A DNA stretch of 64,000 bases from Psammoneis japonica (lineage: Eukaryota), in the NCBI GenBank assembly GCA_008632985.1, contig QPGO01000087.1, positions 248,001 to 312,000 of the forward strand, read 5' to 3'. Numbering within the stretch: the first letter of the stretch is position 1; every line of letters starts with the position of its first letter. Under the pieces are notes generated by a model. The model saw nothing but the letters and a program-made list of their open reading frames with translations. It had not been told where the DNA came from and searched no databases. A program made the position numbers and the translations under genes. Below are positions 3,535 through 55,099 of the stretch, one piece after another.

Positions 3535-4577
3535 GGCGGACAAACGAATTCACCTCGACACGGACACCTACAGCAAGGTTCCAATGAAGAAATCAAACAG
3601 TGTTAGCGCGGTGATGGTAAAGAGAATAAACTGAAACACAATGGTTGAAAGCAATCCTCAAATCTTAACGAGCCCTTCAATCTGTACGCGGAGGGAGGTT
3701 CAACAAGTTCAATCAACTTTGACGAAGCCTCAGCGACTTGAAAGCTTCTGGCTTCACTTACTTTGCCTTGAAAATTGTGAGCAGAAAAAAGTGGACGCTC
3801 TGTTGGTGGCAGTTGCATCGGCGGTTTTTTCGTCGATTTGTGAACCTGGATTTTCAAAAAAGTTGCGGGTGAAGATAGGGGCAATAGGCTTTATGTATTC
3901 GTTTTCTTTTGATGACCTGACTATAATAATGTTCTGAATAATATATATAAGGTTGTAGCCAGTAAATCAATACTAAAACGGAAACACAACGGTTAGTTGT
4001 TTAACGGATCGATTTTCCCGCTAAAAATCAACGTTCAAGACGTCCTCATACTTGCTCTGTAGACTTCTACACAACGATAGACGGTTTGCGTCTGTTAGTT
4101 GCAGGGACATTTTCGGAAAATTCCCGCCAGTATTGCTACGTAGAATTGTACGCATGCTCGTTTGGCCGTAGCACGTCTGAAGAAGGACTAATCATCGGAG
4201 TAGCTACGACGACTTGTTACGGTCGCTACAGATCTTGTTCCCTGGACTACAAGTCGTTTCTGCTAACTGACATAGCCCTAGTGGGTAACGACAAGATCGC
4301 CTCTAGAGTAGAGTCTAGAGTCTATCCTCCGTACCGGTACCGAAAGTTGGAACAAGTACTGTAGGCCTACTAGTTTAGCTTCTCCATCGTGGGTACAGTA
4401 GGGCGTACAGTACTCACAGGACTTTCGAACAGAACGAAGTTGTGTCGCGTACCGTATCTTTCCAAACCGAAAGAAGTTGCATTGTGTACCCGCGTGAGAC
4501 GACATAGACGGACGGCTTATTGCTAGTTCCTAGTAGTAGTAGTTAAATAACATCCACTGGCTTGAACGTCACCATGA

Positions 4578-5378: not shown

Positions 5379-5706
5379 ATCGAGTTTTATCGGCTGGTCC
5401 AACGAGTTCAAAGTGAGCTTCAGAAAACGAAGCCAAATTGCTGTGTACCGGCAAACCTCAGCGTTCAGCGTGTTGCAACTCTTCAACAACTCAACAGCAT
5501 GTCATCGCGCCATGGCCTCAACACGCTGCGCGCGCTACCGGTACCGGCATGGTGCGTCATGCGTCTCATTCGACTCAACATCTTTTCTGCCTTTTCTTGG
5601 CCTCTTGTTGCCTTCTTGTTCGCCATGAGCCATCATACTCAACACCGCAGAGCAAACGCAGATCGCAACAGCAAGCTAAAAAAGCACGCCAATCAATGAC
5701 AGCTTA

Positions 5707-6720
5707 GTGTCGCATGCCACCAAGGAAGACATGGCTCGCCTGGAAGCACCCGATGCTGCCGCGAGAGCTCAAGCCACCGAATCAGGCAAAAGCCATGGGA
5801 AAGTCAAAGGCGGTGTTCGCTGGGTGACAACTCAAGGGTTGCAGAGTGAAGCAGGGAAGAAATTGAATGGCATGCTTGGAAAGGTGCTGACTCAAGAGGC
5901 GAACGATGAAGGACGGCATCAGCTTCAAGTGGACGGCATCAAACAGATGAAGCTTGGCTTTTGTGCACCCGCCAATTCGGAAAATGTCCCACAAGCAGAT
6001 TTGACAAGAGTGTGCCATCTTCCAAGTGATGGAGAACAGGAAATGCAGCAGGTCTTGATCTTCCCAAAAAGCCATCATTTGTTTGGAGGCTGTCCTCCTC
6101 TCATGGTTGAGAAAACCAAACCATGTCGAAGCTTGCATGATTGGGCTGAGTGCAACAATGTGTGGGCAACGTGGCTCAAGATTGAGCCACAGAGTGGCTT
6201 TGCACCTGCCGAATGGCAATCCTTTGCAGGGCCGGTTTGTGTTTGTTGGCCAGGTGGAGCCACTGATTTGTCTGGGGATGGGATGACAAGGATGCCACCA
6301 ATGAGTTCTTGAGTGCACTGTTTTGGATGGGCGACAGGCAGATGGACCAGCATTTGATCCACACACATGGTTGAACCCCGGTTTCTTCCTCAAGTTTCTT
6401 CGGGACCTCAAACATGCGAGGGAGCATTCTAACATGGGCTCAGCTTTGGAGGGTCTGACCATTGTTGATTCATTGGACAGGACAGTTGTGCTGCAGAACT
6501 GGGCTGGCACAGGTTGTGTGGCAGCAGTCTCTTTCCAGAGATGAAAGGCGGCATTGTTGAGGCACTTTGTGATGACAAACTGTTGCACAGCAAGATCTGC
6601 ATTGTCACACTCTTCAACTCCATCATTTGGCAAGATGGTGTTCGTTGGGTGACCATTCAAGGGCTTCAGAGTGAGGTGGGGGGGGACACAGCACCTTTTG
6701 TGAGTTGCTGAATTTCTTTC
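5707..6720 (+). pseudogene. Hypermutated (TpA/CpG-depleted) copy of a hypothetical-protein gene
   Basis: VxxQGLQSEAGKKLNGxLGKV...GRHQLQV and WATWLKIEPQSGFAPAEWQS motifs with no Tyr, broken frames and an internal repeat (5812-5849 vs 6637-6674). Confidence 0.6.
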
Positions 6721-10461: not shown

Positions 10462-11579
10462 CTACTCTTCGTCTGGAAGCAGGCACTTATCTGCGACATA
10501 CGCTCCAATCGGAGCACCAAGAAGGGGTCCAACCACGTACACCCACCATCCCTGAAAGGCAATCTTGCCCCACCCCGCCATGCCGGCAACGATACGGGGG
10601 GCAAAGTCACGAGCAGGATTGAATCCGGCCTGCGTCAGTGGCGCAATCACGCAAATGAGCGCCCCCACCGTGATGCCAACAAGGGGCGGAATCAAACTGG
10701 AGTCCTTGACGGTATCGTTTCGTGGGTTGGTGAGCGAAAAGACAACAAAGGATAGAACCGCGGTACCAAAGGCTTCTGCCAGCAACGCAATCGGCCACGT
10801 GATTGGAGCTCTGTGCACACGAAATGATGTGTAATGCAAAAATTGAAAAATAAGCCGAGGAAATGTATATCAGCAACGAAAACACGTGTGGTTTCCCCGT
10901 ACTCACGCAAAGTACTCCCCAAAGCACTTTGCACTCGCCACACTCGCGGTAGCACCTCTCACAATGCTATTTGCCTTTTCAAATTCTGCAATCTTGCTAC
11001 CAAACAAAACCAGATTCATTCCCGCCGCAAGCACGCCACCGGCCAATTGTGCGAGACAATAGGGAATCACCTTGGTCCAGCCAAACGCCTTGTTTGGTCG
11101 CAGCAGAGCCAGGCAAACGAAATGGCTGGATTCAAGTGAGCACCCGAAACGGACGCTGTGGTGGAGATTGCAACAGTCACGGCAAAGACCCACACGGCGG
11201 CAATTTGAAACAAACCCACCAAAGCATTATCGTACACGACAGACATTACGGATCCAGTGCCGAGCGACACTAAAAGAAAAGTCCCCAGGAGTTCCGCCAG
11301 CATTTCGCGTCCCAGATTGGAATTGTTGGTATTCTCGCTTTCATCCTTTGACCCTGCTCGCAGTCCAAGTGTATATTTTATCAAATTGCTGCCTTGATTG
11401 CGAGTTGTCGTCAGAGGCTCGAATTTGCCTCTATTGGAAGCGTCCTGTTGGATCGATCCGCGATGAGCGGAAGCTTGACGGCAATGCCTCGACGTGACCG
11501 AAAAGGCTGCCGCAGCCGACGATCCATTTGTCACTGCCGCAAGCAGCAGAATACACGATGCCAACATGGACCTCATCAT
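10462..11579 (-). CDS. MIP-family aquaglyceroporin with bipartite plastid-type presequence; apparent 1-nt frameshift near 11112
   Basis: AELLGTF, SGAHLNPA, AEAFGT, GFNPARDFAPR, WVYVVGPLLGA. Intron 10811-10906. Signal peptide followed by AAAF-S. Confidence 0.92.
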
Positions 11580-11814: not shown

Positions 11815-13700
11815 CAGATGGTTGACACACATGTGATGTTTGGATGGAGATGGCTCCACCAGTGCAGTGGATGCATTCTCCCAAACCCAAAGCTGGTGGA
11901 TGGTGGCAGACTGAAACTGTCACCAGCATTTCCTTGTTGTTGGCTCTTGTTCAGAAGAATGTGAGGTGAGCCACCACCAAGGGGCTTTGTCAATCTTCTC
12001 TTGCGTTGGTCTGGGGCACTCTCAACTCATGCATGTGGTCAATGAAGGTTGGGAGGTGTTGTCCATGTCAAGAACAGTGTGGGAGTCTGCTTTTCTTGTG
12101 TGCTGACCCTTGTGTCAAGAGAGCAGTCATCATGTGCGGCAGTCATGTTTGGATCTGGTGAGGCCGGGCCGCCCCACTTCTGTGCCCTCTCCAAAGCCAA
12201 AGTGCAAAGATGACACACATGCAATGTGAGGAGCAGAGACACCTCTGTCTGCCAGCAGAAGCACAGTGCAGGGGGGCACTCCCAAGCTCCCACAAAGCCA
12301 GGGCCACAAGCACACCACGTCCACAATGTGCGCTGGAGACACACAGCTTGTGGGGCAACTTCTTTGCTTGGGAGTCAGGAAATGGGCTGAGCCAGTGAGA
12401 AGTTGTCATGCTGAAGTGAGCCAGGCAAAATTTTGCACAACTGGTCAGCTTGCAGGTGTGCAAACAGCACAGCATCTCATGGATGATGCGACACCTGCTG
12501 CTCTGCAGCCTGTGGCATCACAGCAACTGTGAAAACCTGCAATCTCACAGGAGGGCGGGCACACCCAGCAACAACCTGTGTGCTTCACATGTGATCATCC
12601 AGCACACTGTGCATGTGTTGGGGCAGCAAGAAGGGGTGCTGCAGTTTAAAGCCTCTTGCAGCTTAGAAAAAAAGCTCCTTTTGGTGCAAGGCAACAGTGA
12701 GTGAGCAAACCTCTCCTGGGAGTGCTTGTGAAAATTTTTGGCAACAAACGCCACAGGGCACTGCAAAACATGATGGCACACAAACTGTCCAACTTGTGCT
12801 GATTGATGCACATGACAGCCACTGGCATGTTGTGTTCTGATGACACACCAAAGAAATGCATGTGGCCAGCACTTGAAACTTGAAAGAATTTGGAGTGTGT
12901 GGCTGCAAAATCCACTGTGACCTGAACACATGACATGACTTGAGAGAGCGCCCTTTGAGAGGTGATGCACAACAATCATCACATGGCTGCTCAGACAACC
13001 AGGACAGGCACAGCCATTGGACAGGTGCTCCACCTTGCCAGGTGGCTGTTGGCTGTGCAGGTGGTGGTGTCAAGCACAGCTTGTCCAGGCTGGCCTTGAT
13101 CAGCCTCTTGCAGCTTGGAGAAAAAGCTTTTGGTGCAAGGCAAGGCAACAGTGAGTGATCACAAGAATTCTCCTGGGACATCAGAGGCCCCACAACACAG
13201 TGGTCATTGCTGTTTTTGATGTTCATTTTGCCTTTGAATTTTGTTTGTCTCACTCATTTAAATGTGATGATTAAACTTGAACGGTGTTTGCACAATGCAA
13301 GGTGTTTGCATGTTTCATGAGGAATTTTGTCATCTGTTTGCATTGACAACATGTCCCAAAGCAACTTGCATTTCCAAATGTTTTGTGATTGAATGTTTGA
13401 GTTGCAACAATTGATCCTCTTTGCTTTTGATGCTTTAGATTTCAACTTGGTTTTTACTTTTTACACCCCATTTGTTTGTGTGTCACCATGTGTGCTGGCA
13501 TCGTGTCTGCACCCAAGTCATCTCCACGTGTGCACTCCCTCTTTGCATCTCACTTTTTCCTGGAATTCTGTGCATGTTTCTCCGCCATGTGTTTAGTGCT
13601 TTTTCTACATGAGCCATTTTCTGTGCATTTCACAACAGTGCACCCTCTTCCCAAAATCAATTTTACCAGGCAGAGTGTGTGCTGTTGTGATTCATGCAAT
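11815..13700. mobile_element. Heavily hypermutated repeat-derived sequence, family not identifiable
   Basis: Near-absence of TpA and CpG. Contains a ~380-nt segment (12418-12790) repeated at 18102-18440 and partly at 13100-13180. Confidence 0.6.
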
Positions 13701-14949
13701 TTTTGCATGAGGAGCCACCAACGGATTTCTTCTGGCCATGGCAGTCAATGACTTCACCCCTGTCAGTGGACGAGGTTGACCCTGATCCCTCATTCATCTT
13801 TGCTGATGATGTCAATTTTGATGACACAGAATGTTTCACTGATGGTTTTGGAACGGAGCTTTTTGGGCCCAAGCTCAAGAGCACAACTGCCATGCATGCA
13901 TCCAAAAAGCAGTTTGTGGAGAGAACAAGCTGGTCACCCTCTCCAGCACTCCTTGCACTTCCCTTCCTTTGCCACAAGCCCAAGCTTTGTCACATTCCCT
14001 GCATTGCTGAAGTCATCCGCACAAACAACATTGTCAGGAAAACTTTTGGATGTCCCAATGTTTGGTCCCACATCATGACTCATGGTTGGTCAACAAAGAA
14101 ATCCTGCTGGAACAAAGGTGAGCATGTTCTTTGGCATCAAAATTTGGAGGATGCTCTTTGTTTCTACACCCCACCAGGAGAGACAGAAAAAGAAGAGGAG
14201 CACCATCGTGACCTTCACCGCAACACAAAGGTGATGGTGGAGTTTGTGTGCCAGATCATTGCCAGTGAGGACCTCAATGATCCTGTCTCAGGCAAGCCTT
14301 GTTTCCATTTTTCTACAGTGCAAAAGTCTCCAAGATCTGATTGACAACTGAGCACATGACCTTCACGGTGCACACTTTGTCATCAAAATGGTCATGCATT
14401 GTGTCCACTGCAAACCCCTGGACAGGAGCCATTGGTTCATGCAGATCTTTTGTGAAGTCGCCACCCAAAAGGAGTGGCACATTTTTGTCTGCAGCTTTCT
14501 TGTCATGTGCCAGTTGAGTGAAGTTGGTTCTGAGGAGGAAAAAGTCAAGGGCTTTCTTGGAGACAAACTCTGTTGCACCAAGGACATGGCAACAATGGAG
14601 GGCAATGCCGTTGTCGCCCGAGAGGCACACAACAAAGCAAAAATCAATGCCATGCGACAGCATGCATTTGGGAAGCGTTGTCCAAAGGAGCAACCCAGCA
14701 CATGATCCAGGTGCTCCAAACAGCTCACAATGCTGCATTGCCAAATGCAAGATCAGAGGGCTGGCCACTTGGATGATGACAAAAAAGGGGAGCACAATTC
14801 AAAACCAAACACAAAATTGGAAGGATTTGCAAAGATGGCACCTGCTTGCACGAAGCTGGCAAATGCTTCCTTGTGCCTGCAAAGCTGTTGTTCATTGTTT
14901 TTTTTTTAAGGATGTCTTCTCTGTTCCATTTCTTTCTCTCCAAAAGAGC

Positions 14950-17900
14950 CTCACAAGAAGACCAAGTCTGTTTCACGTGGCAGTTGTGGATTCCTTGTTT
15001 GGAATTTTTGCAACTTCAAACTGTCTGGTTGCCAGGTCAAAATCATCATCAAACATTTTGGGACCACCAGGGAATCTTTTTCCCTTCTGCATGACTTGCA
15101 TGGTCCAATGAGATCCACACACAGGGTCTTTCCCATGGCACTGACTTTGCACACTTGGGAGACAAATGTTGGCATTTGCTTCTTTTGTTTCTTCTTGAAC
15201 TTCTGGAGTGCAAAACATTTTTCAACACATGTTTTCACATGTCTGCACACATGGCAGACCACCACAAGTGTTGTGAGATTGTCTCTTCTGTTCCATTTGT
15301 GCCAGGATCTACCAGAAGGTGCTGCATGTGATGCCAATCTCTGTTGCTGACTTTTGTGACAACTTTGGTGCAACAATTTTGTTCTCCTGACATGTGAGCA
15401 TTTGATCTTGCTTGCCTCCACAAGAAGTCTTCACATGACATGTTACATCCAACAATTTGGAGAGAATGTCTTTGCCACATTTCTGTTTTGTGTGTGTCAA
15501 TGGAAAGACATTGTTGCAGGATTCAGGTGCAACCTTCTCAGCCAATTGTTCAGTGCCAAGGTTTTCTTTCACAGTGAGTCAGCTGATTGCATCTGCAACA
15601 ACACTCACCTTGCCCCTGCAGCAAACAAATTGTGTTGGGGCTGCATTCTTCAAGACTCTGTCTGCAGCAAAATTTTTATGATCCACAACTGTTTTTGTCT
15701 GTTGGCCAAACAACACATTTTGGAACTCCTTGGGGGTTTCCACCACAGACAGCAGTTCTTTTGCCATTGTGCTGGTGTGGCACATCTGTGCTTCATTTGG
15801 CTTTTGGCTGTGGAAGGCCCCAGGTTGGTTGTTCTGTGATGTGGCCACACCAATTGAGAATTGCTTGCACCAGCATGCATCTCAAAGGGTTTGCCAAACT
15901 TTGGACACAATGATGATGTGTCTTTTGACACAGCTTTCTTCACTTTTTTGAAGGCTTTTTGTTCCATGCTCATCCGTTGCCACATGACCTTCTTAGATGA
16001 GGTGATTTTGACTGGAGGAGCAAGTGTGTGAGAATGTTGAGGCCACATGTCTTGATGGCAGTCAATCACGCTAAAACACCCCCACTTTCTCAGGAATTGG
16101 TTGTGTGCCTTTTCATGAAATGTAGAAACCCAGACAGCCTGCTTTGGACTTTGCAAAAAAGGACATTTTTGCACTGACCTTCAAACCGGCTTGTTCAAGC
16201 CACGAGCCACATGAACACCATTTCAAGTTTTTGGAGGTGTCCTTTGAAGTCACCTTTTGTTGGAGTGTGTCATCATCACATGTTTTGACAAACTCTAAAC
16301 CCACCATGAGCTCTCACTTGTGTGCTCTTGGAAAATGTTTGGAGCTTGACAAATTCCCGTTGGTGGGAGTCTGCAGCACTCACATTTCCCCCACGGCATC
16401 ATGATTGTGCACAAACAACACATGCACTTGGTGTCAACTCAATGTGGTGACATCTCATGTTCAAATCAAGTGACATTGCACACATGAAGCCCTTGAGCTT
16501 CTGAAGCATGTCTTGAATGTTGGACAGAGGGTGTGGAGCATGTGCTGCCAAGTCTCCAACTCAGCTGACAAAAGTTGGACAAGAACCAAACTCTGCCATT
16601 TTTCTCAGTTTAAACACAAAGTTTGCAGAGCAGTTTGTTTTTCTTGAGACTCCTGTCTTGCAGAGTCTTTTGACTTCCTTTGAAGCAGTCCCCTTAAGAC
16701 CTGTGGAACAGGAAATGGTTTTGCATGATGTTGGGTTGCACTGAATTTTGGTGCAAGATCTGCCAGTTTCCCTGTCCATGCATCTGAGGCACCATTGAAA
16801 AGATTTTCAAATCTTTCTGGGAGGAAGTTCAATTGCTTCTGTTCCTCTGGAGTGAGGTGTGTTGCTGCTGCAGTTGCATCATTGAGGTCAGCAGCATGAT
16901 GGTCAGAGTCAAGGATCCTGTTGACCCTGTCATTTTAAGAGGACTTTTCATGGCCTCAATGTGATCGGCAATCAGCTTGAAGACCTTGGCACAAAAAATG
17001 CATTGACATTTTTCATTGGTGTGGTTGCATCTTTTTAATTTCCTCATTTGCAAAGTCCAGTGTGACTCCAAGACTGCTCATTGAGTTGTGTCCCATGATC
17101 ATGTCATGCTTGCATGAAGAAGAACACCGTCTTCTCAATCAGTTTGTGCTCATCAAATTCAGGCAATGAGAGCTGAATTTTGCATTTGCTCCCTCCCTTG
17201 GTTTCCCAACTTTTGGTGGCAGATGCGTTGGCTCTTAATCTCCATGCAAATTGTGCAAAATTGTGGTTGACAATGTTCCACATCAAGAAGAACACACAGA
17301 GGCTCATCTTTCTCTTTCCCCAAAGGAAGCCTTCACACAAACAATGATGCTGGACCAGTGCAAATTGCTTTGGCCCTTTTTCCAGGCTTCCCAACATCCA
17401 GCAAGGCATGAGACTCCTTGACAGGTGCCAGTCATTTTTCAGATTTGCTGTGTGTCATTCTGTTGAATTGGCAGTTTTCCTCACTGAGAGCATCAGAGTC
17501 ACAATCTTTGCCTTTGTGCTTTTTGTTGTTGTTCAAGGAACTTGTGTTGAGAGATTTGTTGACTGCCTGTGTGGTCATGGCACTCAACTCTTCCTTGTGA
17601 AAAGCATTTTCAGTGTTGTGACGTGACCCTGTGTGATTGCCATTTGAATGATGCCATTTCAGGTTTGGCTCAGAATTGTCGCGGCATTCCTTTGCCAGCC
17701 TTTTAATGACCCAGCATTCATCCACATGTTGTGAGTGGCCTTTTCACAATGAATGCACCACTTGCAGATTGGCGACCATTTTTGGCACCGTGTTGGGGCC
17801 CACCTTTGGTTTGGGACCAGGTTTGCTGTCAGCATCATTCTTGACATGAGTTTGGTCTTAAACATGCCCTCAATGACCTCCAAACATTCCAAGAACTCAA

Positions 17901-19250
17901 CCAACTTGTTGAGGGCATGGACTGAGATTTCAAAACTGGCTGATGTCACCATCAACAAGGTGCAAGGTTGCAGACGATGTCCTTGAGCTCATGTTCATTC
18001 AGATGCTGCTTTTGCTTGAAGGGAGGACAGAACTTGAAGTCTTCATAAATTTCCTGAGTTCAAGCTGAAATTTCTCAAATCTTCATCATTTCTGGTTTCT
18101 TGAGCCAGGCAAAATTTTGCACAACTGGCTCAGCTTGCAGGTGCACAAATGGCACAACATTTCATGGATGACACAACCTTTGGCATGACAACAAATGTGA
18201 AAACCTGCAATCTCGCAGGGTGGGCACCCAGCAACAACCTGTGTGCTCTTCACATGTGGCAATCCAGCACACTGTGCATGTGTTGAGGAAGCAAGAAGGG
18301 GTGCTGTGGTTGAAAGCCTTTTGCAGCTTGGAGAAAAAGCTTTTGGTGCAAGGCAAGGCAACAGCAAGTGACCAGCCACAAGAACTCTCCTGGGAGTGCT
18401 TGTGAAAATGTTTGGTGCAAAAACATGATGGTGCACAAACTGCTCTGTGAAACAGTTTTCTTGAAGTCTGAAGACATGTGCAAGAACACACAAAACTCTG
18501 ACACATCTCATGCACTGCACTCAAAGAACAAGCGTGCAAACAGAAAGAATCACGAAAAGTGAAAATTGTGAGATCAAATTTTGTTCAGCCATTTGCAGTT
18601 TCTCTGAAGAAGTTCTCAATGGCCCCAGGTCTTTGCACTGTGTCTGCAGATCAAAGGCCATTTGGAGCAAATGATCATGACAACAGATTGCCTGGATGCA
18701 ATCAACATTGACATCTCACATGTCAACATTGTTGGGTGATTGCACCTGCAATTTTTGACAGCATTTCTGATTTTGAAGTGCACTGGTTGTTTTTGAAGGC
18801 TCCATTGGCTTCTTTGTCATCTGCATTCATGGCCTTGGTCTCAAAAACGTGGAGAGCATCTCCCTGCAACAATGCACTTGTGAGACAGAAATCATCAGCT
18901 TGCTTCTGGATGTTCTGTCCAACCAAGACTTGACGGTGTGTCTTGAGGAATTTGATGTGCTTGGGAACGCCTTGCTTGTTGTGGTGCTTGACATTGATTG
19001 CGTGAGTGCAGCTCTTCTTGTTTTCAGGGTGAAAGCACTGTTCCATCTTGAGGCACTGACTCGGTTTGAGCATCTTTGGCTCAGAAATTGACTCCAAAAA
19101 AAGGAAAAAAATTCTCCTGCTCGATGAAAGACATGGCAGCACAGCAACATGAGGTGAAAGCTTCAATTTTTGGTTTTTACAATCTGCGTTGTGTGTGTGC
19201 ACAATGCACCATGCTTGAAGAAATTGTGCAAACAAAAGCAGAAAGAATCA
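14950..19250 (-). mobile_element. Decayed Ty3/Gypsy LTR retrotransposon (gag-protease-RT-RNaseH-integrase), integrase truncated
   Basis: gag (QVLVGQNI...ALLQGDAL.VFE; ELKDIV), RT (AKPFPVPQ..KEVKRLCKTGV; FVKT-CDDD for YxDD), RNaseH (KPFE.H..AS..QL; AF.S.K.N.AQ....KELLSVVET.KEF), integrase (PGTN.TEETISQHLWW; LCVDLIGP; FEVAKIPNK). Domain order RT-RH-INT is Gypsy-type. Confidence 0.92.
18102..18440 (+). repeat. Second copy of the 12418-12790 segment, interrupting the Gypsy gag
   Basis: Colinear match beginning gagccaggcaaaattttgcacaactgg and ending ctctcctgggagtgcttgtgaaaat...gcacaaactg. Confidence 0.9.
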
Positions 19251-20467
19251 CAAAAAGTAAAAAGCTCTCAATGGCCTGAGGCATTTGCGCCATGTTCGCA
19301 GATCAAAAGCCATTCAGAGCATCTGACCATGACAACACAGATTGACCCAGTTGACGCTGACAACTCATGTGCCAACATTGTCGATCAACCATGTTTGCAA
19401 TTTTCAACATCCGATCAAATCTGTGTGATTAATCTGTCCTTCATGTGCGCCCACAATTGCAACATGATCAACATGTGCAACAACATGCAACTGTGATGAA
19501 TGTGAGTGTTTCTTCCTGCGCAACAACACACAATGCATTCATTGCCAAGAAAGGAGCAGCCAGCAATGTTGCCACCTCAGCTGGCTTGTCACTCCGGATG
19601 AAAATGCATGAGCAGCTGGTGTTTCTTGTGAGTGGATGAGATGCTGCAACAAGCACAAGATTGTGCTTTGAGGAAGCCCAGCAATGTCTTGGCGTTGCAG
19701 AGCAGCGCAGCTCTTTTTGGAGAGCTCTGCTCAACATGGTGCCAACAGGAGGGTGGTGCTCTGCCACAAGTGCAGTGTGCAACATGAGCAAAATTTTCCT
19801 TGTGCTCAAAAATGCACGTCAGAGGAGCATGTGCTGGAGCAAGCACAAGGTGTGTGTTGAGGAATGGTCGGTGGGTTGGAGCATGTCTGGTGGTGTGGCG
19901 GACAGCTCCACAAGGTGCACAATGACAGCGAGCCAGACCAACTCACAAGCAGAAAATGTGCTGTCAAGATCTGTGCCCTGGCTCTTGGCTCTCCCAAAAC
20001 ACACATCATTTTTGGGCCCAACAGTTGCATGGTGTGGTGGTGGGCAGCAAATGAGCATGGGGCCCTTCATTTTGGGAGTGCACCCCAGTCTCTCTCAATC
20101 ATGTTGGGAGCCAGCAGTGATGGCAACGAAAGGTTTGGCACTGCGTTCTTGCTCCGTCGGTTTACGACAACCCTTTGGTTGGTAGAGTTTGTGCTTGCAG
20201 TTGCAAATCAGACACTTTGCACATTGTGTGCACACAGTGTGACATCGGCAGAAGATGACCCATGGATTGTCATCATGAGCGAGCTGCTCTCTACTGGCAT
20301 TGCGAAGAACGCACCGGCACGCACATTACATTCGGTGCCGGTGCGGTCCCGCATGCATTGGACAGCACTGTAGAGTTCGTCCGATTGGGCTTAAATCTCA
20401 TTAAACATGGGCTTAAATCCTCGCATGTCTTGTGTCTCCTCAAAGCATTCGCGCGGTACGATGATCG

Positions 20468-22009
20468 ATGATCGCCTCACATAATCCACGAAATCAACAG
20501 CAGCAAGCAATGAGAACGATGCGAACCTCTCTCGCTGTTTTGTTGGTCTTGCTCCTCCTTACAGGCGTGTGTTGGGGAGAAGCTACAAAAAGGGATCTAC
20601 ACTGTCGATACACTGTCGACATCGAGGAAGAAGTTGACGAAGGAGGTCCCCATGACAACGACGGTGGACCGTCGAATGACACTGTTGTGTGCATTGAAAG
20701 TTCCATGGCATCTCATGTGGACAAGATGGCCGAAGTGTTTGTGCTTGAGGTGGATGGATGCCACCAAATTGGGAGAGAGTGGTCGACAGATGGGATCTTC
20801 TTCAGTCAAAACAACAAGAAGATCTCACCAACGGTCCAGAATCACATCATGGCAAAACCAAAAATGTTTCTTGACGGCGAGCTCACTTTCGAAAAGAAAA
20901 TTAGACTAGAAGAAAATGCTGCTGGACACGGGCGATGCTTGGTGCACAATGTAGATGCGACCAAAAAGATTAGAAAAAAACGGAAGAAGAGAAGGACGAG
21001 AAGGCGCAAGTTCTCTCTGAACAACAAGGGGCATTGCAGAAATTGTCTTGCAGATGATGCGGATGCCAGACGGAGAACACTGAAATCTGGATCTTTCATC
21101 CGTAACATGATTCACAGTGTCACGTTTGAAACCTGGATGAACATTCGCATCCAAGAGGTGATGCAAGAAGATTGCTCACTGGTGACAATTTTCAGCACAA
21201 CCTTCTCAAGAGTGGAGAATGGACAAGTGACCCATGCAAGTGGTCCGTGCACTCCTGTAGAGCAAGAGGCAGATCTAGAAATCACTGCTTGCGGGACCAT
21301 GTCACCATCACATGCGCCGACAATCGGCCAGCCAGAAACAGAAGAACCATCAACAACACAACCAACATTCCCACCGACAAAAGGACCGACGGAGTCGCCA
21401 ACAACATTGCCCGCAACTGCACCGACGACATCACCTGCCATTGTCTCGGTCACGTCACCAAAAGCTGCTCGTTGTTCCTCTGAGATTTCAGTGAATGGGG
21501 GTTTTGAAGACGGAAACCTGAATGGTTGGACACAGTTTCCATCTCCGGGCAGCACCCAGACTGTTGGCAGTGGTGTCCCTTTTAACCCCACCGAGGGTAA
21601 TTTTGCAGCAAAAGTGGCAAACCCTGCGCGGGCCAGCGGGAGTGTCATCAAGAATGCCAATCTTGGCATGGGTCTCGTGAAAGCAAACGATCCCATTGCC
21701 GTTTCGTTTGACGCCCGCGCGGACGTGCTGGGCCCTGGCGCCTTGGTCTTTGCCGAGTTTTTCTCCGAGCTTTCGGGTGGCGGGACATCGAGAGAAGAAA
21801 TTCTCGGAGGAGGACCAATTCTTTCCGTGTCTAATCCTGGCAAATGGAAATCATTCTCTTTTAGCACGACTGCAGGAACAGACGTTTCAGGTGGTGTCAC
21901 ACTCCAATTTGTCGTTGTAACCGGAGGAAACCAGAGAAGTAAAGCCACGGCATGCTTTGACAATGTCAGTGTCCGAGTCGGTCACTCTTGTAGCAAATGG
22001 CAAGGTTGA
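20468..22009 (+). CDS. Secreted protein with Pro/Thr-rich linker and C-terminal carbohydrate-binding (CBM4/9-like) domain; open but TpA-hypermutated
   Basis: Signal peptide, CRNC..DD.D.RR motif, PTxxPT linker, VNGGFEDG...GW...FDNVSV domain. Only 1 Tyr in 513 aa. Confidence 0.75.
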   Translation: MIASHNPRNQQQQAMRTMRTSLAVLLVLLLLTGVCWGEATKRDLHCRYTVDIEEEVDEGGPHDNDGGPSNDTVVCIESSMASHVDKMAEVFVLEVDGCHQIGREWSTDGIFFSQNNKKISPTVQNHIMAKPKMFLDGELTFEKKIRLEENAAGHGRCLVHNVDATKKIRKKRKKRRTRRRKFSLNNKGHCRNCLADDADARRRTLKSGSFIRNMIHSVTFETWMNIRIQEVMQEDCSLVTIFSTTFSRVENGQVTHASGPCTPVEQEADLEITACGTMSPSHAPTIGQPETEEPSTTQPTFPPTKGPTESPTTLPATAPTTSPAIVSVTSPKAARCSSEISVNGGFEDGNLNGWTQFPSPGSTQTVGSGVPFNPTEGNFAAKVANPARASGSVIKNANLGMGLVKANDPIAVSFDARADVLGPGALVFAEFFSELSGGGTSREEILGGGPILSVSNPGKWKSFSFSTTAGTDVSGGVTLQFVVVTGGNQRSKATACFDNVSVRVGHSCSKWQG

Positions 22010-24225
22010 GTCGAACTCGAGCTTTTGCGATGACACGAAAACTGTGCCGGCCAGAAATGATTCCGCCACACAGCCATGAAAAAGAAGAACCAGCGTTGAG
22101 TGAGTTCGATCCCCTTGCGGTAAAAAGCAAGCGCACTTGTGCAATGCTCCGCAGTCACTTCCTTGCCCCTCTCAATGCTGCCAGTGCCCAATTCGTGCGC
22201 TCTACCGCATTTCCTTCGTGAGTCCACCTGCATCCTCTTGCGTCGTCCGCTTTATCTTGCAAACTTGTTTCTTGCCGGCAATGTGGTGCGTCACTTTCGC
22301 AGCTTGAAGAACGAAGCCTCCAAGTCCCTCGAGTTGGATTGCATCGAACCTCGACTATGCAGGCTCATTGCAGGCATGGGTGGGGCTGCACAGAGTGACT
22401 GGTAGAATGGATCTCTCAGCCGCTCCTGCCAGACACGTTTTAGTTGGATCCACCCTTCGAATGACTTGATCATGGAATCATGGCATCGCACACATCCTCG
22501 CTGACAGGAGCAACTTCATTTCCTGATCCACTGTCATCGCCTTCTTTCCTTCTCTTGGCGACTCTTTGCATCAGACCGAATTTCTGTTGATCGCAACAGC
22601 TCTCTGGGGCACCACTTTTGACAGCCTTGAACTGGCCATTGGCAGGTGCCTGCCGCTCCGTCTTCTTTGGTTCCACCTCCTCCCCCCTCTGCAGATGCTT
22701 TGTCCATTTGACTCGATCGCATTGCCAAGCACCGCGTCCCTCGCGCGCAAGGACGAAATGATCACACCGTTTTGGTTTTTGTGCATGAGGAGGACGTTGG
22801 ACAAGCATTCCACAAATGTGAAAAAGAGCTGCAACTCCAAATCGTAGTGGGGTCGACGCTGGATTTCCAATGACAGTTCGTGTCACATGAGTTGTTGACA
22901 CATGACATTTATGTCGGCCTGGCATTCGAGTGTAGATTCAGCTGTCTCCTGAGGATTCCAAAACAGCTCACAATTGCACGCCATTCGTTTTCTTTTCCCT
23001 CTTCCAGCACTGACTGAGGCATGGAGCGCTTGCTCGGGAAAATCCGTCACACCGCAGGTTGCGGTTGACCATTTTTTGGGGACAAACTTTGACATCCGCT
23101 CCATGGCGCCTCAACATGGATGTGGTCATTGACCAACGCCGCCAGTGCAAGTGAACAAGTGAGTTCAGTTGAGCGCTGGCATGCGCCGTTGATCTTGAGC
23201 GGCTTTTTTGGCATTCATTTAGTCGTTTGCTGTCAAAGCAAGTAAAATGATTGCAAGCGACAACAAAGCACAAGATGCCAACAAGGACCTCATCATCATT
23301 CTTGATGCATTGTGTAGCTTTCGCCTAACATGCGAAGCTCTTGCCAAAGACCAAAGATCTTGCAAAGATTGCAAAATATCGTTCAATTGATCAACATACA
23401 TTTACTTAGAGTCAATATAAAACATTTAACTGTTCAAGTCCGACCGTTAAAAGTATTTAGCACAGTCGACTTTTCCTTCCACGACCAAATTGTCAACTCG
23501 CAGCGCGGTTACAGTAGCTATGATATGAGGCTACGACTAGCACAATGTGCAAAATAGGCCATAACGAACTGAATATTTTGTATTTTAATATATAGTTAAT
23601 GTCTGGATGATCGGTATGTAAAATGACTGCACATGACTCCTGCTGTAGAATTTGTACCAGTCTACGTAATTAGGGCTCTACGAACTGAAGTCATACAGAA
23701 ATGTCTGGTGTTAAGTAAATTCAAATGTCGGAGCCGCCAAAATGGACCGAAACGCCGGCCACGTCTTTTAATAAAACATTCGAACTTGTTTATTGATTAT
23801 GAAGCAGTCGGAGTTGAAAAAGTAATATCAAAATTTGAGTTACAATTTGAATAGGAAACATTCAAAATCTTCTAATTGTGTTGCGAGTATCGATGTTTGA
23901 GTACAAATTGTATGGTTACATCTGTAAAAATGCCTAAATACTTGCTAAAAACCGTTATCGTTAAATATCGATGTACAAAAAAAGCTATACGGGTGTTCGG
24001 GACGTTTTTTACAGTTCACATTGTGCTAGGCGTAACTCCATATGACTGCTGGCGCTGTGAGCTGTGACAAAAACGAAGAGGAAGGAGGAAGCAAGAGTGT
24101 GTGGGTCCGTGTGTGTTTGTTCTCGAGCCGCTTATCAATCGGTCGTTTCGCCACTAACTATTCGTTACCCGGTTTGATTGATCAAAAAATTGACAAAACG
24201 CACAAAACAAGAATATAACACAACT

Positions 24226-33524: not shown

Positions 33525-36500
33525 ATGCTGCGGGTTGTTGCATCGTCGTCCCATGGTGGGCGGCTGGTGAGACCTCGACTAGTTGAACCTGGCAGTTTCA
33601 TGCTGGGTGGGAAGCGCACGTTCTTTTTTGGTGGTGGCAAAGGAGGTGATGATAATGATGACAAGAGTACAAAAGCAGATTCATCATCGAAACCGAAAAC
33701 TACCACGTCGTCTTCATCTTTGGCTCCTTCCAAACTTGGTGTCGGTGACCAAGCTCCGAGATACCCACATATTATCGCACTGCCCGTCATCTCCAGACCG
33801 CTTTTTCCAGGCATTGCGACGCAAGTATCACTTACAGATCCGGTAAGTGTGTTTCAAGCTTTGGGTATAAAAGTCTACACAAAGTTGACGAATTCTCTAA
33901 CGCTTCAGAAAACCCTTTTTCTCCCCCCTATAGGCAACGATAGAGGCGTTTGACAATTTGACAAACAACAATCAAAGCGGCTATGTCGGCGTGTTTTTGC
34001 GAAAGGCAAATTCTAGTGGCGTGTCGGAGGGTGGTGTCATTATTGACCAACCCGAGCTTATTACCGACCAAAAGGACTTGCACTCTGTTGGTACCTTTGC
34101 GCAGATTCATCAAATGACGCATGGATTGCCATCTCCTCACCTTCCTCCTCAAGACGCACTGGGATCCACGCAACAACACGGGCAGGAAGAAAAGAAACCG
34201 GATTCAGCGTCTGTGCTTCTCATGGGACAGAGAAGAATTAACTTACTATCTGTGGACGAAGTGGGACCTCCTATTGATATCACGGTGTCACACTGGGATC
34301 GACTCGAATACGAAGGAAGCGATGATACCATTCGTGCCCTTAGCAACGAGATTCTCAGCACAATTCGAGAGGTGGCACAGGTGAACCCCCTGTTTCGTGA
34401 AAACCTACAATTCTTTCCAGTCAGGGTGGATGCCACGGATCCGTACCGCCTCGCTGACTTTGCGGCTTCCATCACCACAGGGACGCCGGAAGATTTACAG
34501 GCGGTGCTGGAGGAGAAAGACGCTGAAATGCGCCTTCACAAATCGCTAGTGCTCTTGTCCAAGGAACGAGAAGTTTCAAAGTTACAACAGGAAATCAGTG
34601 CCAAGGTTGAAGAGAAAATGTCCGAAGCACAGCGAAAGTATTTCCTGACGGAACAGCTCAAATCAATTAAAAAAGAGCTGGGTATGGAGAGAGACGATAA
34701 GGAAGCCTTGATTGAGAAATACCGCAAAACCCTGTCCGAGTACCCAAGCGTTCCAGAGGAAGTGATGGAAACAATCGATGCGGAACTCGAAAAGCTATCT
34801 ACTTTGGAAAAGAACTCATCAGAGTTTAACGTCACTCGTAGCTATCTTGACTGGCTCACTGGCATCCCTTGGGGTGTGACATCGGAAGAGAACTTTGACA
34901 TTAAAGACGCACGGCGTGTCCTGGATAGAGACCATTACGGTCTGGATGAAGTCAAGGATACAATCTTGCAGTTTATTGCGGTTGGAAAGCTCAAGGGATC
35001 GGTCCAGGGTAAAATCTTGTGTCTTGCTGGTCCTCCAGGAACTGGCAAGACCAGCATTGCCGAGAGCGTGGCGGATGCACTCGGGCGCAAATTTTATCGC
35101 TTTAGTGTTGGCGGTCTTTCCGATGTGAGCGAGATCAAGGGACACCGTCGAACGTACATTGGTGCAATGCCTGGAAAACTTGTACAATGCCTCAAGAGTA
35201 CAGGCACAAACAACCCGTTGGTGTTGATTGATGAGATCGACAAACTTGGTTCTGGGTACAGAGGTGATCCGGCGAGTGCATTGTTGGAAGTGCTTGATCC
35301 GAGCCAGAACTCCACGTTTCGGGATCACTTTTTGGACGTTCCGACAGACATGAGCAAGGTGAGATTGCAGGATAGTTTTCATGGAAGTTAGTGTCAACCC
35401 ATTACTCTTCTCGGCCCACTCATCCGTGTTTCATTTTACAAAATAGGTTCTTTTCATGTGTACAGCAAATGACCTGGAACGTATCCCGGGTCCTTTGCTC
35501 GATAGGATGGAGGTGATCCGCTTGTCTGGTTATGATGTTCCTGAAAAGATTGCCATTGCCGAGCAATACCTGGTTCCAAAAGCATTTCGCGAAAATGGGT
35601 TAATGGTGAAGAAAGACGAGGTAGACGACAAAGAAAAGGACGAAGAAGGCAAAGATGCACCAGCCGACATTAACGCGGACGATGCAATCGACTCTACTCC
35701 ACTTGCAAATTACGTTCATGCCGAGAACATACCAGAATCAATGAGTATCACACGGAAGGCCATAGAAAGCCTAGTGAGATGGTATTGCAGAGAAGCAGGT
35801 GTGAGAAACCTGAACAAGCATATTGACAAAATCACGCGAAAGTTAGCTCTTCAGGTTGTAGCAGAAGATGAAGGAGCAGAACTAACGTACAAGAGCAAGA
35901 GGAAATCAGAAACATGGGAAATCACTGATGAGAATCTCGCTGATTACGTCGGGAAGCCAGTGTTCACATCTGATCGACTGTACGAGAAGGACCCACTTCC
36001 TCACGGAATTGTCATGGGCTTGGCCTGGACTTCAATGGGAGGTTCGGCGCTGTATATTGAGACTCAAGGAATCATGCGGGGGAAAGACGCAGAGGGAAAG
36101 CAACTGGGCGGTGGTACTCTCAAGGCAACTGGGCAACTTGGGGACGTTATGAAAGAGTCAACTCAAATCGCGTACACCGTAGCTCGAGCACGTCTTGCAG
36201 AGGTTGATCCCGAGAATCGCTTTTTCGACGAAAACGACATTCACATGCACGTGCCAGAGGGGGCTACACCAAAGGATGGCCCATCGGCGGGAATTACAAT
36301 GGTAACTTCAATGTTGTCGCTTGCTCTCGACAAACCTATCAGGAATGATCTAGCGATGACGGGAGAGATATCTTTAACGGGCAAAGTACTTCCAGTAGGC
36401 GGTGAGTGAAAATGTGCGCACTCATACTTGGGGGGATTGTTCGTGATCTCAAACTGCCTTCTTACTTCAAACAGGAATCAAAGAGAAGACGATGGCGGCC

Positions 36501-39396: not shown

Positions 39397-41396
39397 ATGG
39401 GCTTTCAAAACGCACCATTCGCCGTCCTTTTTCTTTCACTGGTGACGGTTTCCCTGGCGTACGCCCCACTTGCGGGTGTCAAGGTCAAGTCCGTATCGTC
39501 GGGCGAGAGTGTCGACTTGGGAGAGTATCTTAGTAGTAACAACAATGATCGAGCCATGCTGGTGTTGGGCACATATGCTGCCGATTTTAATGCTATTGAA
39601 TACGCTCAGCGTCTTCGCTACTACACTCCCAAGCTTCGACAAGAATGCGGTGTCTCCAAGTTTGGATTTGTCCTCAATTGCAAACCCGAGGCAGCGATTG
39701 CCCTTGCCGATGAAGCCGACCTGGATACCAACGAGGTGGAGCTCCTGGTAGATCCGACCGGAGAGGCGGGAAGAGTATTTGGAGTGGAACGGGGATGGAG
39801 GCCTGACGACAAGGAAATGTCACCCTTTGTTAAGCTCTTTGGCATGCTGTGGGGCTTGGGTGCGTGGGCGACCTTGCCGGCAGTCATTAGCGGGTACATT
39901 GGCAATCCCTTTTACGGACAACCGTGGATTCAAGATGCGCTCGCCGTTGGACAAAAAAAGGGGCGGTGGCCGGGTAATGCCTTGGAAATTCCGACGATGG
40001 AACCGTTGTGAACAAATTCAGTGAATTGCCTCTTGTTGGTGATTGGAAGAGGCGACCACTCGAGTTGGCAACGCTGCGACTCCAAAACATGATTGGTATT
40101 TCTTTGAAACGATGGAAAGAGTTGGCTCCCGATGAAGAAGCGCTCAAGGCTGGTGTTTTGACCCAGTTGGGTGCCTGCATTGTGGTGGATTGCATGACGG
40201 GAAATGAACTTTATCGATGGAGAGATCCTGGAATTTGTGCTGTTAGCAACTTTGAAGATATTATTAAAGCATTGAATAAAGTTCCCGATGATGGATCAGA
40301 CGCGCCTATGCCAGCGACTCTGGAAACACCCGCCCCAGAGACTGAGGAAACAGTTTCGACTCAGGAACCACCTACCGCAAAGGCTGAGGAGCCAGTGGTG
40401 GAGGTAGACGAGGCCAAAGCTGATGTCTCTATCCCCTATGACGCCGCCGCTCGTTTGGCATACGAGGCAAGTGACAAATCTGTAAACTACGATGACTTCA
40501 AAACTTCGTATGAAGCTGCAGCGATTGCGGATGTCATTATGAAGAACAAGGGACCCGAGGTCGAAAAGAAAGAGGAAACAGTGACTATCGACGTCTCGAT
40601 ACATTATGATGCCGCCGCTCGTTTGGCATATGAAGCAAGTGACAAATCTGTGAATTACGATGACTTCAAAACTTCGTATGAAGCTGCAGCGATTGCAGAT
40701 GTCATTATGAAGAACAAGGGGCCCGAGGTTGAACAAGACGAAGAAGCTGTGAGTGTTGACGTCTCGATTCCCTATGATGCCGCCGCTCGTTTGGCATACG
40801 AGGCTAGTGACAAGTCCATGGACTACGATGCGTTCAAAACTTCCTATGAAGCTGCAGCGGTGGCCGATGTCATTATAAAAAACAAAGGGCCTAAAGAGGA
40901 AGAAGCTGTAAAGGTTGACGTCTCAATTCCGTATGATGCCGCTGCTCGTTTGGCATACGAAGCTAGTGACAAATCCTTGGATTATGATTCATTCAAAACA
41001 TCTTATGAGGCTGCAGCGGTGGCCGATGTGACTGCCAAGAACAAGGGACTCGAGATTGAAGAAGATGCTGTGAGTGTCGACGTCTCGATTCCATACGATG
41101 CAGCTGCACGTTTGGCCTACGAGGCTAGTGACAAATCCATGGATTATGGTGAGTTTAAAACGGCGTATGAGGCTGCTGCTATAGCCGATGTGATTGCCAA
41201 AAACAAGGGACCCGAGAAGGAGGAGAAGGACGAAGAGGCAGGAAGTGTGGACCTCTCGATTCCGTATGATGCCGCCGCTCGTCTGGCTTACGAGGCTAGT
41301 GACAAGTCCATGGATTATGATGCGTTCAAGAAAGAGTACGAGGGCCGAGCTGTGGTTGATGTCATTGCTAAGAGGATTGCAAAGCTAAACAAGTAG
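39397..41396 (+). CDS. Plastid-targeted AhpC/TSA-like (thioredoxin-fold) protein with six C-terminal tandem repeats; apparent 1-nt frameshift near 39990
   Basis: Signal peptide + [52 protein letters not shown]. Frames join as [14 protein letters not shown] if one T is restored. Confidence 0.8.
40420..41385 (+). repeat. Six ~55-codon coding repeats ([45 protein letters not shown])
   Basis: Directly visible in translation and DNA, period ~160-170 nt. Confidence 0.97.
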
Positions 41397-54420: not shown

Positions 54421-55099
54421 TCCTTCAACTCACAGAAAACCAATGCTCGACGTTGCCATTTCTTGAGGACAGACAATGGCAATGATGATGGCGGAGAGCC
54501 AGGAGGAGGGCCGCGGTGTGCACGAGGACCATGATGATGAGCGGGGGATGGCGAACCCGGCTGCTGCTCATGCGGACGCCGCCGCTGGCTCTGTCGAGTG
54601 CTACGACGACGAGTGACGGACCGAGTTGTTCTCTTTTCCATGGTTCGTTGTTGTGTCCGGCAAGTCGGGACACCTTGCCAAGAGCGCTGTTTCGATCTTG
54701 TCGCTCTTTCTGTCGATCTCTTTTGAGGAGACAAGTTGAAGGTGGCACCAACAAGAGCAACGAAACAATGACTGTGAAAGTGGAAGAACGACAGCCATGG
54801 CCACAGCGAAATCTTTCGCTGATCCTCTATGAATTTTCAAATTTGGCGGTCCGGCGCGCTGCAGTTGGCAGCACATGCAGAAGATTCATCGTTGACAACA
54901 AAAATGTCGGTAAAATGTCGTTGAAAAGGCCCGCGACATTTTTTGACTCTCACACTCACGAGCCGCAAACTTCAACAAACTCAATGTGTTGGGCTACGTT
55001 CAGTGGGATCGTGCTGGCCGGGGACCAGCAGGAAGAGCGTGCGTGAGAACAATCATCGCTTGCCCAGTCGAGTTGCCAGTCCAAGCCTGGTGGGCCCCA

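Follow-up and report, generated by a model that had tools for sequence, protein, structure and literature searches.

TpA and CpG depletion and loss of tyrosine codons in a dead Ty3/Gypsy retrotransposon of the diatom Psammoneis japonica

Repeat-induced point mutation (RIP) in fungi converts CpA to TpA. TA and AT contents go up as a result, TAA and TAG stop codons arise, and single-copy flanks are affected as well by leakage. In diatoms, the Ty3/Gypsy elements GyDi1 and GyDi2 have been described in T. pseudonana, with relatives in Pseudo-nitzschia; the passages on GyDi in this study mention neither hypermutation nor dinucleotide loss (PMC2806351). Here we analyze a stretch of 64,000 nucleotides from the diatom Psammoneis japonica (assembly GCA_008632985.1, contig QPGO01000087.1, positions 248,001-312,000 of the forward strand), referred to as the window. 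It contains, on the minus strand, the pol region (reverse transcriptase (RT), RNase H and integrase) of an old, dead Ty3/Gypsy long terminal repeat (LTR) retrotransposon. The 8 kb block around this element and a second block of 6 kb are strongly depleted of both TA and CG dinucleotides. We consider it likely that two dinucleotide-specific, strand-symmetric transition processes hit the element after its insertion and were confined to the repeat blocks and their near flanks. The first of these would convert CpG to TpG or CpA, the second TpA to TpG or CpA. The CG channel looks like ordinary methyl-CpG decay and the TA-directed channel like an apparently undescribed kind of repeat mutation.

In the two blocks (12001-20000 and 55001-61000, together 14 kb) the ratio of observed to expected dinucleotides (o/e) is 0.05 for TA, 0.15 for CG and 1.87 for CA/TG. 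Only TA and CG are low and only CA/TG is high, while AA, AC, AG, GA and CC are the same as in the rest of the window; small shifts are seen for AT (0.83 vs 0.92 in the rest) and GC (1.24 vs 1.04). When expected counts are taken from the rates in the rest of the window, TA and CG are reduced to about 8% and 15% of normal, with 114 CG present instead of 777. The deficit of 529 TA and 663 CG adds up to 1192, and the excess of TG and CA amounts to 1237. Block 1 alone contains 31 TA (329 expected), 68 CG (444), 943 TG (574) and 888 CA (578). Thus, the loss of TA and CG is matched by the gain of TG and CA, which is the signature of a conversion of the former into the latter. As both processes would end in TG or CA, the total of the four pyrimidine-purine steps should stay constant while TA and CG fall. 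It amounts to 241.3 and 247.4 per kb in the two blocks, 238.2 in the zones of TA loss next to them and 240.6 in the remainder of the window; for pol, read on its sense strand, it is 235.9 per kb, as compared to a median of 240.1 in 55 intact relatives of the element.

The loss of TA extends 1-3.5 kb past the doubly depleted cores, with fairly sharp edges, into zones that keep their CG (Table 1); a further zone of this kind lies at about 5501-6000, and over all of them TA o/e is 0.04-0.37 and CG o/e 0.59-1.19. Pooled over 8 kb, these TA-only zones contain 72 TA where 329 are expected and 477 CG where 444 are expected, and for 20001-23000 the counts are 37 vs 123 and 153 vs 166, respectively. 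Their G+C content is higher (0.529 vs 0.473). Thus, the TA channel operates without CpG loss. Outside blocks and zones, TA o/e is mostly 0.4-0.9 (extremes 0.23-1.16) and CG o/e is about 1. The zones could have arisen by spread from the repeats, or could be younger or foreign DNA. Relative to the rest of the window, the TA contexts are depleted to different degrees in these zones: ATAT is reduced to 0, ATAC/GTAT to 0.04, ATAG/CTAT to 0.08 and GTAC to 0.15, and six other contexts (ATAA/TTAT, CTAA/TTAG, CTAC/GTAG, CTAG, GTAA/TTAC and TTAA) stand at 0.2-0.4. In the saturated blocks TTAA is the most resistant context (0.57). Polymerase-eta-type mutagenesis at WA was considered as a source and rejected, as AA/TT is not depleted (AA o/e 1.22 vs 1.17).

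The coding sequence of the element was then compared with natural proteins. A HMMER search with a 176-residue piece yielded 162 proteins at E<=0.001, the best of them with 47% identity over 73 residues; a 159-residue piece of the integrase used as query found no homologue at the same threshold. Among 78 related metagenome loci, which encode relatives of protein P0014, the 55 with an open frame of at least 900 codons were taken as the intact relatives. A column was counted as conserved if at least 20 of these 55 aligned to the window codon and at least 70% of them agreed, which gave 410 columns. A change was called channel-type if a codon of the conserved residue can be turned into the window codon by TA>TG/CA or CG>TG/CA steps alone.

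As each Tyr codon holds TA and each CGN codon for Arg holds CG, the two processes would turn Tyr into Cys or His, and Arg into Cys, His, Gln, Trp or a stop; loss of TA would also turn the ATA codon of Ile into Met or Thr and the CTA and TTA codons of Leu into Pro or Ser. Not one of the 22 conserved Tyr is kept (10 Cys, 9 His, 2 Phe, 1 Ala), and 4 of the 25 conserved Arg remain (the others being 3 His, 3 Cys, 4 Gln, 2 stop, 4 Lys and 5 others). By comparison, 220 of the 363 columns conserved for any other residue are kept (Tyr vs these, Fisher p=3.4e-9). A smaller earlier test using only 150 HMMER matches had likewise given 0 of 8 Tyr kept. As a control, 20 intact relatives examined by leave-one-out retain 543 of 573 conserved Tyr, and ten CpG-depleted relatives each retain 18-28 of 20-29. 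Tyr accounts for 0.1% of the 942 aligned codons of the element, vs 3.3% in homologues of at least 300 residues, and the 55 intact relatives contain 3.0-3.8% Tyr.

Altogether 186 conserved columns are changed, 66 of them by channel-type changes. These make up 37 of 75 changes at Tyr, Ile, Leu and Val and 15 of 90 at residues other than these and Arg (odds ratio 4.9, p=9e-6), and 14 of 21 Arg changes are outcomes of the CG channel. The initial annotation of this stretch, made from the sequence alone, had proposed that two mutational channels can be read codon by codon and that tyrosines are destroyed, including the one in the RT active site; it had named as contrary evidence a finding that Tyr, Ile and Leu codons are no more TA-biased than other sites. 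The counts confirm the loss it described and support its reading, and the contrary finding did not appear.

It had started from the catalytic motifs. The four motif strings that it quoted are present on the minus strand where it placed them and can be aligned to natural Ty3/Gypsy Pol proteins. The canonical motifs that it gave were essentially right as well, since relatives have VRTYLDDLL, AYPDFNKPFIIHTDAS, AFYSRKLNDAQTRYTTTERELLSIVETLKEFR and CVDTIGPY at the aligned places. In the window, the first of these reads VKTCDDDTL (16263-16289), with the Cys codon TGT of the altered YxDD box exactly at 16278-16280, as claimed. Thus, the active-site box of the RT persists as a relic in which the catalytic Tyr is replaced. 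Downstream of it, ...SLCPKFGKPFEMH spans the YP.F.KPFEIH motif, AFHSQKPNEAQMCHTSTMAKELLSVVETPKEFQN is located within 15708-15830 (minus strand), and CVDLIGPCK is found at 15095-15121 (minus strand), its CVDLIGPC standing for CVDTIGPY. Further differences are MRCHHIEL for MGYYHIEL, WGKCECCRLP for WGKYEYQRLP, VIDCHQDMW for VNYYRDMW, LCPKFGKPFEMHAGAS for AYPDFNKPFIIHTDAS, AFHSQKPNEAQMCH for AFYSRKLNDAQTRY and VETPKEFQN for VETLKEFRN. A misfit is the x of the YxDD box, which is D (GAT) in the window vs L or I in relatives and is not due to a channel change. While the signal is indeed found in the catalytic motifs, it is not specific to them and extends over both blocks in full (8 kb and 6 kb) and over their flanks. 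Similarly, the description of the process as an efficient inactivator is right only in part. The TA channel gives missense changes only and removes TAA and TAG, so that new stops arise from CGA>TGA only. Accordingly, the stop triplets on both strands of 12001-20000 are 427 TGA, 38 TAA and 11 TAG. Since TAA and TAG are nearly erased, block 1 contains long spurious frames; 175 stop-to-stop frames of at least 40 codons overlap 11-21 kb.

Among the 78 related metagenome loci, TA o/e has a median of 0.77 and a minimum of 0.52, whereas CG o/e goes down to 0.09, and several of the low-CG loci still retain Tyr. Thus, CpG decay is common in this family and the loss of TA is special to the host. The TA pattern is also seen outside this assembly. 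At least three conserved-Tyr columns are covered by 137 of the 150 nearest public proteins, and 18 of the 137 (not to be read as a frequency, see below) keep no conserved Tyr and have Cys or His instead. These Gypsy-like open reading frames (ORFs) of up to 699 residues (P0031, P0001, P0110, P0104, P0002, P0080 and 12 others) come from JGI/IMG, ENA, NCBI and Logan records. Conserved Arg is largely kept in P0031 (699 residues; Tyr 0/21, Arg 17/24) and P0001 (Tyr 0/12, Arg 13/16) and lost in P0104 (Tyr 0/11, Arg 3/15).

The two LTRs of a single insertion are identical at the start, and their differences therefore date from the time after integration. The LTR pair of the element has 58 mismatches in 355 aligned columns, of which 9 are TG<->CA doublets. 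When the same numbers of transitions and transversions were placed at random 20000 times, the count of doublets never exceeded 6. Two other repeat pairs have 2 and 5 such doublets. TG in one copy opposite CA in the other is what is expected if an ancestral TA or CG was resolved independently in each. Furthermore, the events inferred for the sense strand are even, with 25 TA>TG vs 21 TA>CA and 11 CG>TG vs 13 CG>CA. LTR doublets and strand symmetry together show that the process acted in place on integrated DNA and on both strands alike. The main cause can thus not have been an editing of RNA or cDNA that preceded integration.

One public DNA run (X1) contains the window sequence, with a share of sampled words of 0.83; no public RNA run is listed with it. 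The depleted sequence is present in contigs from X1, too. Of the eight long pieces listed, seven show 0-3 differences per 560-1030 bases, and the eighth (19064-20500) has 17 in 1439 bases. In total, 1103 contigs at least 80% alike fall on the Gypsy element, and the summed depth is 450-2200 inside it vs about 60 in the flanks. This raised depth indicates that the family is high-copy. The variant places comprise 761 transitions and 381 transversions. Among the 40 variant places listed out of 1143, those from X1 contigs at the same locus amount to 17 events that separate these contigs from the window, and 15 of these are channel-type: six TA in X1 that are TG or CA in the window, five CG vs TG/CA in either direction and four TG<->CA doublets, besides two others. 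With 48.7% of bases in such steps, the probability of at least 15 of 17 is P=8e-4. A stretch of 95 bases in a single-copy flank (20312-20406) contains seven of the differing letters. On the listed events, the same-locus differences point to recent activity.

These data can be set against four other explanations. If RNA or cDNA of the element had been hyperedited, by an ADAR-like A>I or an APOBEC-like deaminase, and the edited copy had then been inserted, both LTRs would carry the same edits. The doublets between them, together with the even distribution of changes over the strands, largely refute such an origin; DNA outside the element was hit too (the single-copy flank and the second, unrelated block), and the differences between contigs of one locus include TA and CG places. 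What would suit it is the high copy number of the family, the known preference of ADAR for A>G with a 5' U/T neighbour and the APOBEC editing of LTR elements that has reportedly been documented in vertebrates; ADAR, however, is a metazoan family and the host is a diatom. We regard this origin as very improbable. A little less so, though still improbable, is that nothing is targeted, TpA and CpG being hypermutable genome-wide and only old unconstrained DNA having reached equilibrium. The element is certainly old, with about 38 of the 355 LTR columns differing by non-channel changes and 120 of the 186 changed columns being non-channel, and genes are already at a TA o/e of 0.4-0.6. Yet TA o/e is highest (0.9-1.16; e.g. 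1.16 at 4001-4500 and 0.96 at 23501-24000) in those stretches outside the blocks that, on inspection by eye, contain few long ORFs, CG is about 1 throughout, TA o/e jumps from 0.37 to 0.96 between 23001 and 23501, and the seven X1 differences are clustered. Sharp zone edges, the hierarchy of contexts and this cluster in one flank favour a directed, possibly burst-like process over slow genome-wide decay, though they are no proof of it.

Avoidance of TA (and CG) could also be adapted rather than mutational, as native composition or through selection. The long open frames in the TA-only zones, of 514 and at least 816 codons with 0.2% and 0.7% Tyr, would fit this idea, as would a carbohydrate-binding-type domain (CBM_4_9) that looks conserved and has Phe at its one conserved Tyr/Phe column. 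On the other hand, long open frames are expected anyway once TAA and TAG are erased, the intact relatives have their normal Tyr content and a TA o/e of at least 0.52, and in the Gypsy element catalytic and structural Tyr are turned into Cys or His at 19 of 22 columns of a sequence whose frames are broken by shifts and stops. This makes an adapted composition hardly plausible, and for the block the loss of conserved Tyr in a plainly dead element refutes it. Least probable of all is an artefact. In this view, a long-read base-caller systematically misread heavily modified bases in the CpG and TpA steps of repeats, and the assembly took over its errors. When base modification causes errors in a nanopore assembly, these do tend toward transitions, and the library type of the only matching run is unrecorded. 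However, errors of this kind are sparse and would not touch about 90% of TA and CG places, the X1 contigs reproduce the depleted sequence, the Tyr-free pattern recurs in proteins predicted from four sources of public records, and the element also has indels, frameshifts and many non-channel changes.

Several points weigh against two directed processes acting on the repeats. With 120 of 186 changed conserved columns not of channel type, ordinary divergence is large too, which means that the element is also simply old and its relatives distant. The ancestral states were inferred from conserved columns of relatives that are just 25-40% identical. A hypermutated query favours look-alikes, so that 18 of 137 public proteins is not a frequency. 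The TA-only zones include single-copy flank (depth 58.8) and the functional-looking CBM_4_9 ORF, which keeps conserved Gly at 19 of 22 and conserved Glu at 5 of 5 columns; repeat targeting is thus not strictly shown, and selection could contribute in the TA-only flank. Finally, the library type of X1 is unrecorded, the run is possibly the assembly's own sample rather than independent sequencing, and the same-locus comparison draws on 40 of 1143 variant places.

As to the nature of the two processes, the CG channel is very likely spontaneous deamination of 5-methylcytosine in silenced, CpG-methylated repeats; LTR elements of the diatom P. tricornutum are described as CpG-methylated in the passages on this subject in PMC2806351. 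For the TA channel, we infer that silenced or repeated DNA receives an enzyme or a DNA modification that drives the changes; the process may be a dedicated genome defence or the by-product of a chromatin mark. Among the chemistries that can be named, we tentatively prefer a deamination of adenine to hypoxanthine at the self-complementary 5'-TA-3', a change that would show up as A>G in one strand and as T>C in its complement. Mispairing of G with a modified thymine (5-hydroxymethyluracil type) would come next and is more doubtful; something else altogether would be slightly more probable than either. TadA/ADAT enzymes act on A34 of tRNAs, which is always 3' of U33, and the trypanosome ADAT2/3 is reportedly able to deaminate DNA as well, a lead for the adenine-deaminase idea and not a finding.

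Going one step further, some diatoms might possess a RIP-like defence of opposite sign, in which a DNA-directed activity converts TpA to TpG/CpA in bursts in repeated or foreign DNA and its flanks. We consider this conceivable, though on the whole unlikely. In its simplest form, the activity would be an adenine deaminase preferring 5'-TA-3'. It would hit ATAT, ATAC/GTAT, ATAG/CTAT and GTAC hardest and TTAA least, would erase all Tyr codons while creating no stop codons, and would act before, and independently of, the slower methyl-CpG decay. Such an order of events would explain the TA-only zones, the Tyr-free open Gypsy ORFs among public proteins and the cluster of seven differences in the flank.

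The features of the window are collected in Table 1. Flanking direct repeats and co-linear pol matches with frameshifts and stops identify the element as an old, broken Ty3/Gypsy LTR retrotransposon. The LTR copies lie about 5.67 kb apart, their ends being too decayed for exact placement. The longer HMMER matches carry the Pfam domains RVP, RVT_1, RT_RNaseH, Integrase_H2C2 and rve in this order and are co-linear with 17120-14980 (minus strand), spanning several frameshifts and TGA stops (tblastn with P0014, P0057, P0071 and P0078). The element thus follows the order protease, RT, RNase H and integrase of Ty3/Gypsy (Metaviridae-type) pol. For orientation, the aspartyl-protease Pfam domains of P0078 comprise residues 94-213, the RVT_1 domain of P0014 residues 215-374, and the Integrase_H2C2 domains residues 375-431 of P0057 and 253-309 of P0071. 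When 12 stop-free pieces of the Gypsy region were scanned with Pfam, RT_RNaseH was matched at 15582-15881 (E=4.2e-7, 30.5 bits vs a cut-off of 24.8), whereas RVT_1 and rve went undetected in these pieces and are visible only via alignment to relatives. A second Gypsy copy was not found by tblastn with Gypsy proteins in the window outside 12-20 kb.

Table 1. Features of the 64,000-nt window (positions as counted from its first letter)
Feature	Positions	Strand	Basis or remarks
Block 1, depleted of TA and CG	12001-20000		Gypsy element, with other degraded repeats at 18.5-20 kb
3' LTR (left copy)	12406-12800	-	An extra partial LTR-like duplicate extends to ~13182
Integrase core start CVDLIGPCK, Tyr replaced by Cys (TGC)	15068-15121	-	P0071 has CVDTIGPY at the aligned place
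Integrase zinc-binding (H2C2) relic	15118-15390	-	tblastn, P0057 residues 390-454 and P0071 residues 241-332
RT connection and RNase H relic with CPKFGKPFEMH, AFHSQKPNEAQMCH..KELLSVVETPKEFQN	15582-16069	-	Pfam RT_RNaseH and alignments
RT relic with frameshifts and TGA stops	16120-16612	-	Aligned to P0014 residues 217-374
YxDD box, now C-D-D-D (TGT GAT GAT GAC)	16269-16280	-	Relatives have Y-L/I-D-D
Protease end and region into RT	16674-17108	-	tblastn, P0078 residues 187-328
5' LTR (right copy), outer end approximate	18060-18470	-	Direct repeat with 12406-12800, 79-89% identical in pieces
TA-only zone right of block 1	20001-23300		TA o/e 0.10-0.37, CG o/e 0.68-0.91
CBM_4_9 ORF with signal-peptide-like start and Pro/Thr-rich linker	20510-22006	+	Within TA-only zone
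TA-only zone left of block 2	52501-55000		TA o/e 0.05-0.24, CG o/e 0.8-1.13
Block 2, depleted of TA and CG	55001-61000		TA 16 vs 247 expected, CG 46 vs 333 expected
TA-only zone right of block 2	61001-64000		TA o/e 0.04-0.25, CG o/e 0.59-1.19
Open frame of 816 codons running off the window	61552-63999	+	0.7% Tyr, 4.0% Cys, 4.9% His, normal CG

Block 2 has no blastn match to block 1 and no recognizable coding domain, and 32 of 33 ORF pieces from 52.7-63.8 kb are without a Pfam family. A match to DUF2172 at 56478-56933 was below threshold (E=0.0041, 17.9 bits vs a cut-off of 27) and was taken as noise. The block contains a tandem duplication of 208-210 bases at 56465-56880, the copies of which differ by 2 TG<->CA doublets. 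The 816-codon frame to its right belongs to no Pfam family and may be a further mobile element, observed at a stage where only TA has been lost.

The CBM_4_9 ORF next to block 1 contains a single Tyr in 514 residues (0.2%). TA is reduced in all three codon phases, to 0.05, 0.18 and 0.28 vs 0.53, 0.42 and 0.56 in nine control ORFs. Its homologues contain 1.33% Tyr with just one conserved Tyr column, which reads Phe in the window ORF. For the C-terminal third all named homologues are bacterial, with 45-52% identity, and the ORF could have been acquired horizontally and have come under mutation pressure directed at TA. On the other side of block 1, and abutting it, lies the 5' part of a MIP/aquaporin gene (11070-11579, minus strand; Pfam MIP, E=4.9e-16). 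It stands in a gradient of TA loss, with o/e values of 0.53, 0.35 and 0.20 over three 500-base windows toward the block. Two further features were noted elsewhere in the window. A 472-codon ORF at 39978-41396 (plus strand) is built from some seven tandem repeats, each of roughly 55-60 residues and with a shared motif, and is rich in Tyr (5.3%), in contrast to the depleted zones. A Lon protease gene at 35447-36409 has a best identity of up to 79%; its named matches, at about 70-76%, are nearly all from Bacillariophyta, besides two plant matches at 43-48% identity, which supports the diatom origin that the initial annotation had assumed.

Some practical consequences follow for the annotation of such DNA. 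Dead transposons in which TAA and TAG are erased keep very long frames, so that gene finders over-call spurious Tyr-free proteins, and public protein sets already seem to contain several of these. The decayed RT and integrase escape profile searches, and an age estimated from LTR divergence would come out too high. Genes adjoining repeats may come under pressure that removes their tyrosines and their codons with TA.

When the locus is compared to known systems, the diatom Ty3/gypsy elements of the GyDi type (Maumus et al. 2009), compared by description only, share with it the diatom host and the order RT, RNase H and integrase. With methylated-CpG decay it shares a CpG o/e of 0.15, the matching excess of TpG/CpA and the restriction to repeats, and some metagenomic relatives have lost CpG in the same way, down to an o/e of 0.09. 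This decay, however, does not explain the loss of TpA: CpG-depleted relatives keep their Tyr and the TA-only zones keep their CG. Editing by ADAR or APOBEC has in common with the locus A>G changes with a 5' T/U neighbour (ADAR) and the inactivation of retroelements by deaminases, but its substrate is RNA or a single cDNA strand prior to integration and it leaves a strand bias, whereas the changes described here are strand-symmetric, took place after insertion and include the flanks. Neither a bias for one strand nor edits common to both LTRs are seen in the window element.

In the full-text literature covered, which leaves out subscription journals and supplements, no description of repeat hypermutation directed at TpA was found, be it in diatoms or in other organisms. 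RIP indices are described in PMC7884421, and the relevant parts of this paper and of PMC12994199 treat CpG and ordinary RIP indices only. The closest parallel is nevertheless RIP of Neurospora and other fungi. Both consist of transitions in one context, act on both strands of repeated DNA in place, leave a dinucleotide skew and kill transposon genes, and the extension of TA loss 1-3.5 kb beyond the doubly depleted cores resembles the leakage of RIP. As to a restriction to duplicated DNA, the interior of block 1 is high-copy in X1, yet the single-copy flank is TA-poor too. The sign of the change is the reverse. In place of C:G>T:A changes at CpA with an excess of TpA, the window has A:T>G:C changes with TpA destroyed (o/e 0.05) and CA/TG raised to 1.87, TAA and TAG vanish, the outcome of TpA loss is missense only, and the host is a diatom and not a fungus. 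Thus, its opposite sign rules out membership in RIP proper. If a TpA-directed process is real in diatoms, it would point to an activity, existing in nature, by which A:T pairs of double-stranded chromosomal DNA become G:C, and it would represent a second, independently evolved RIP-type defence, outside fungi and with opposite chemistry.

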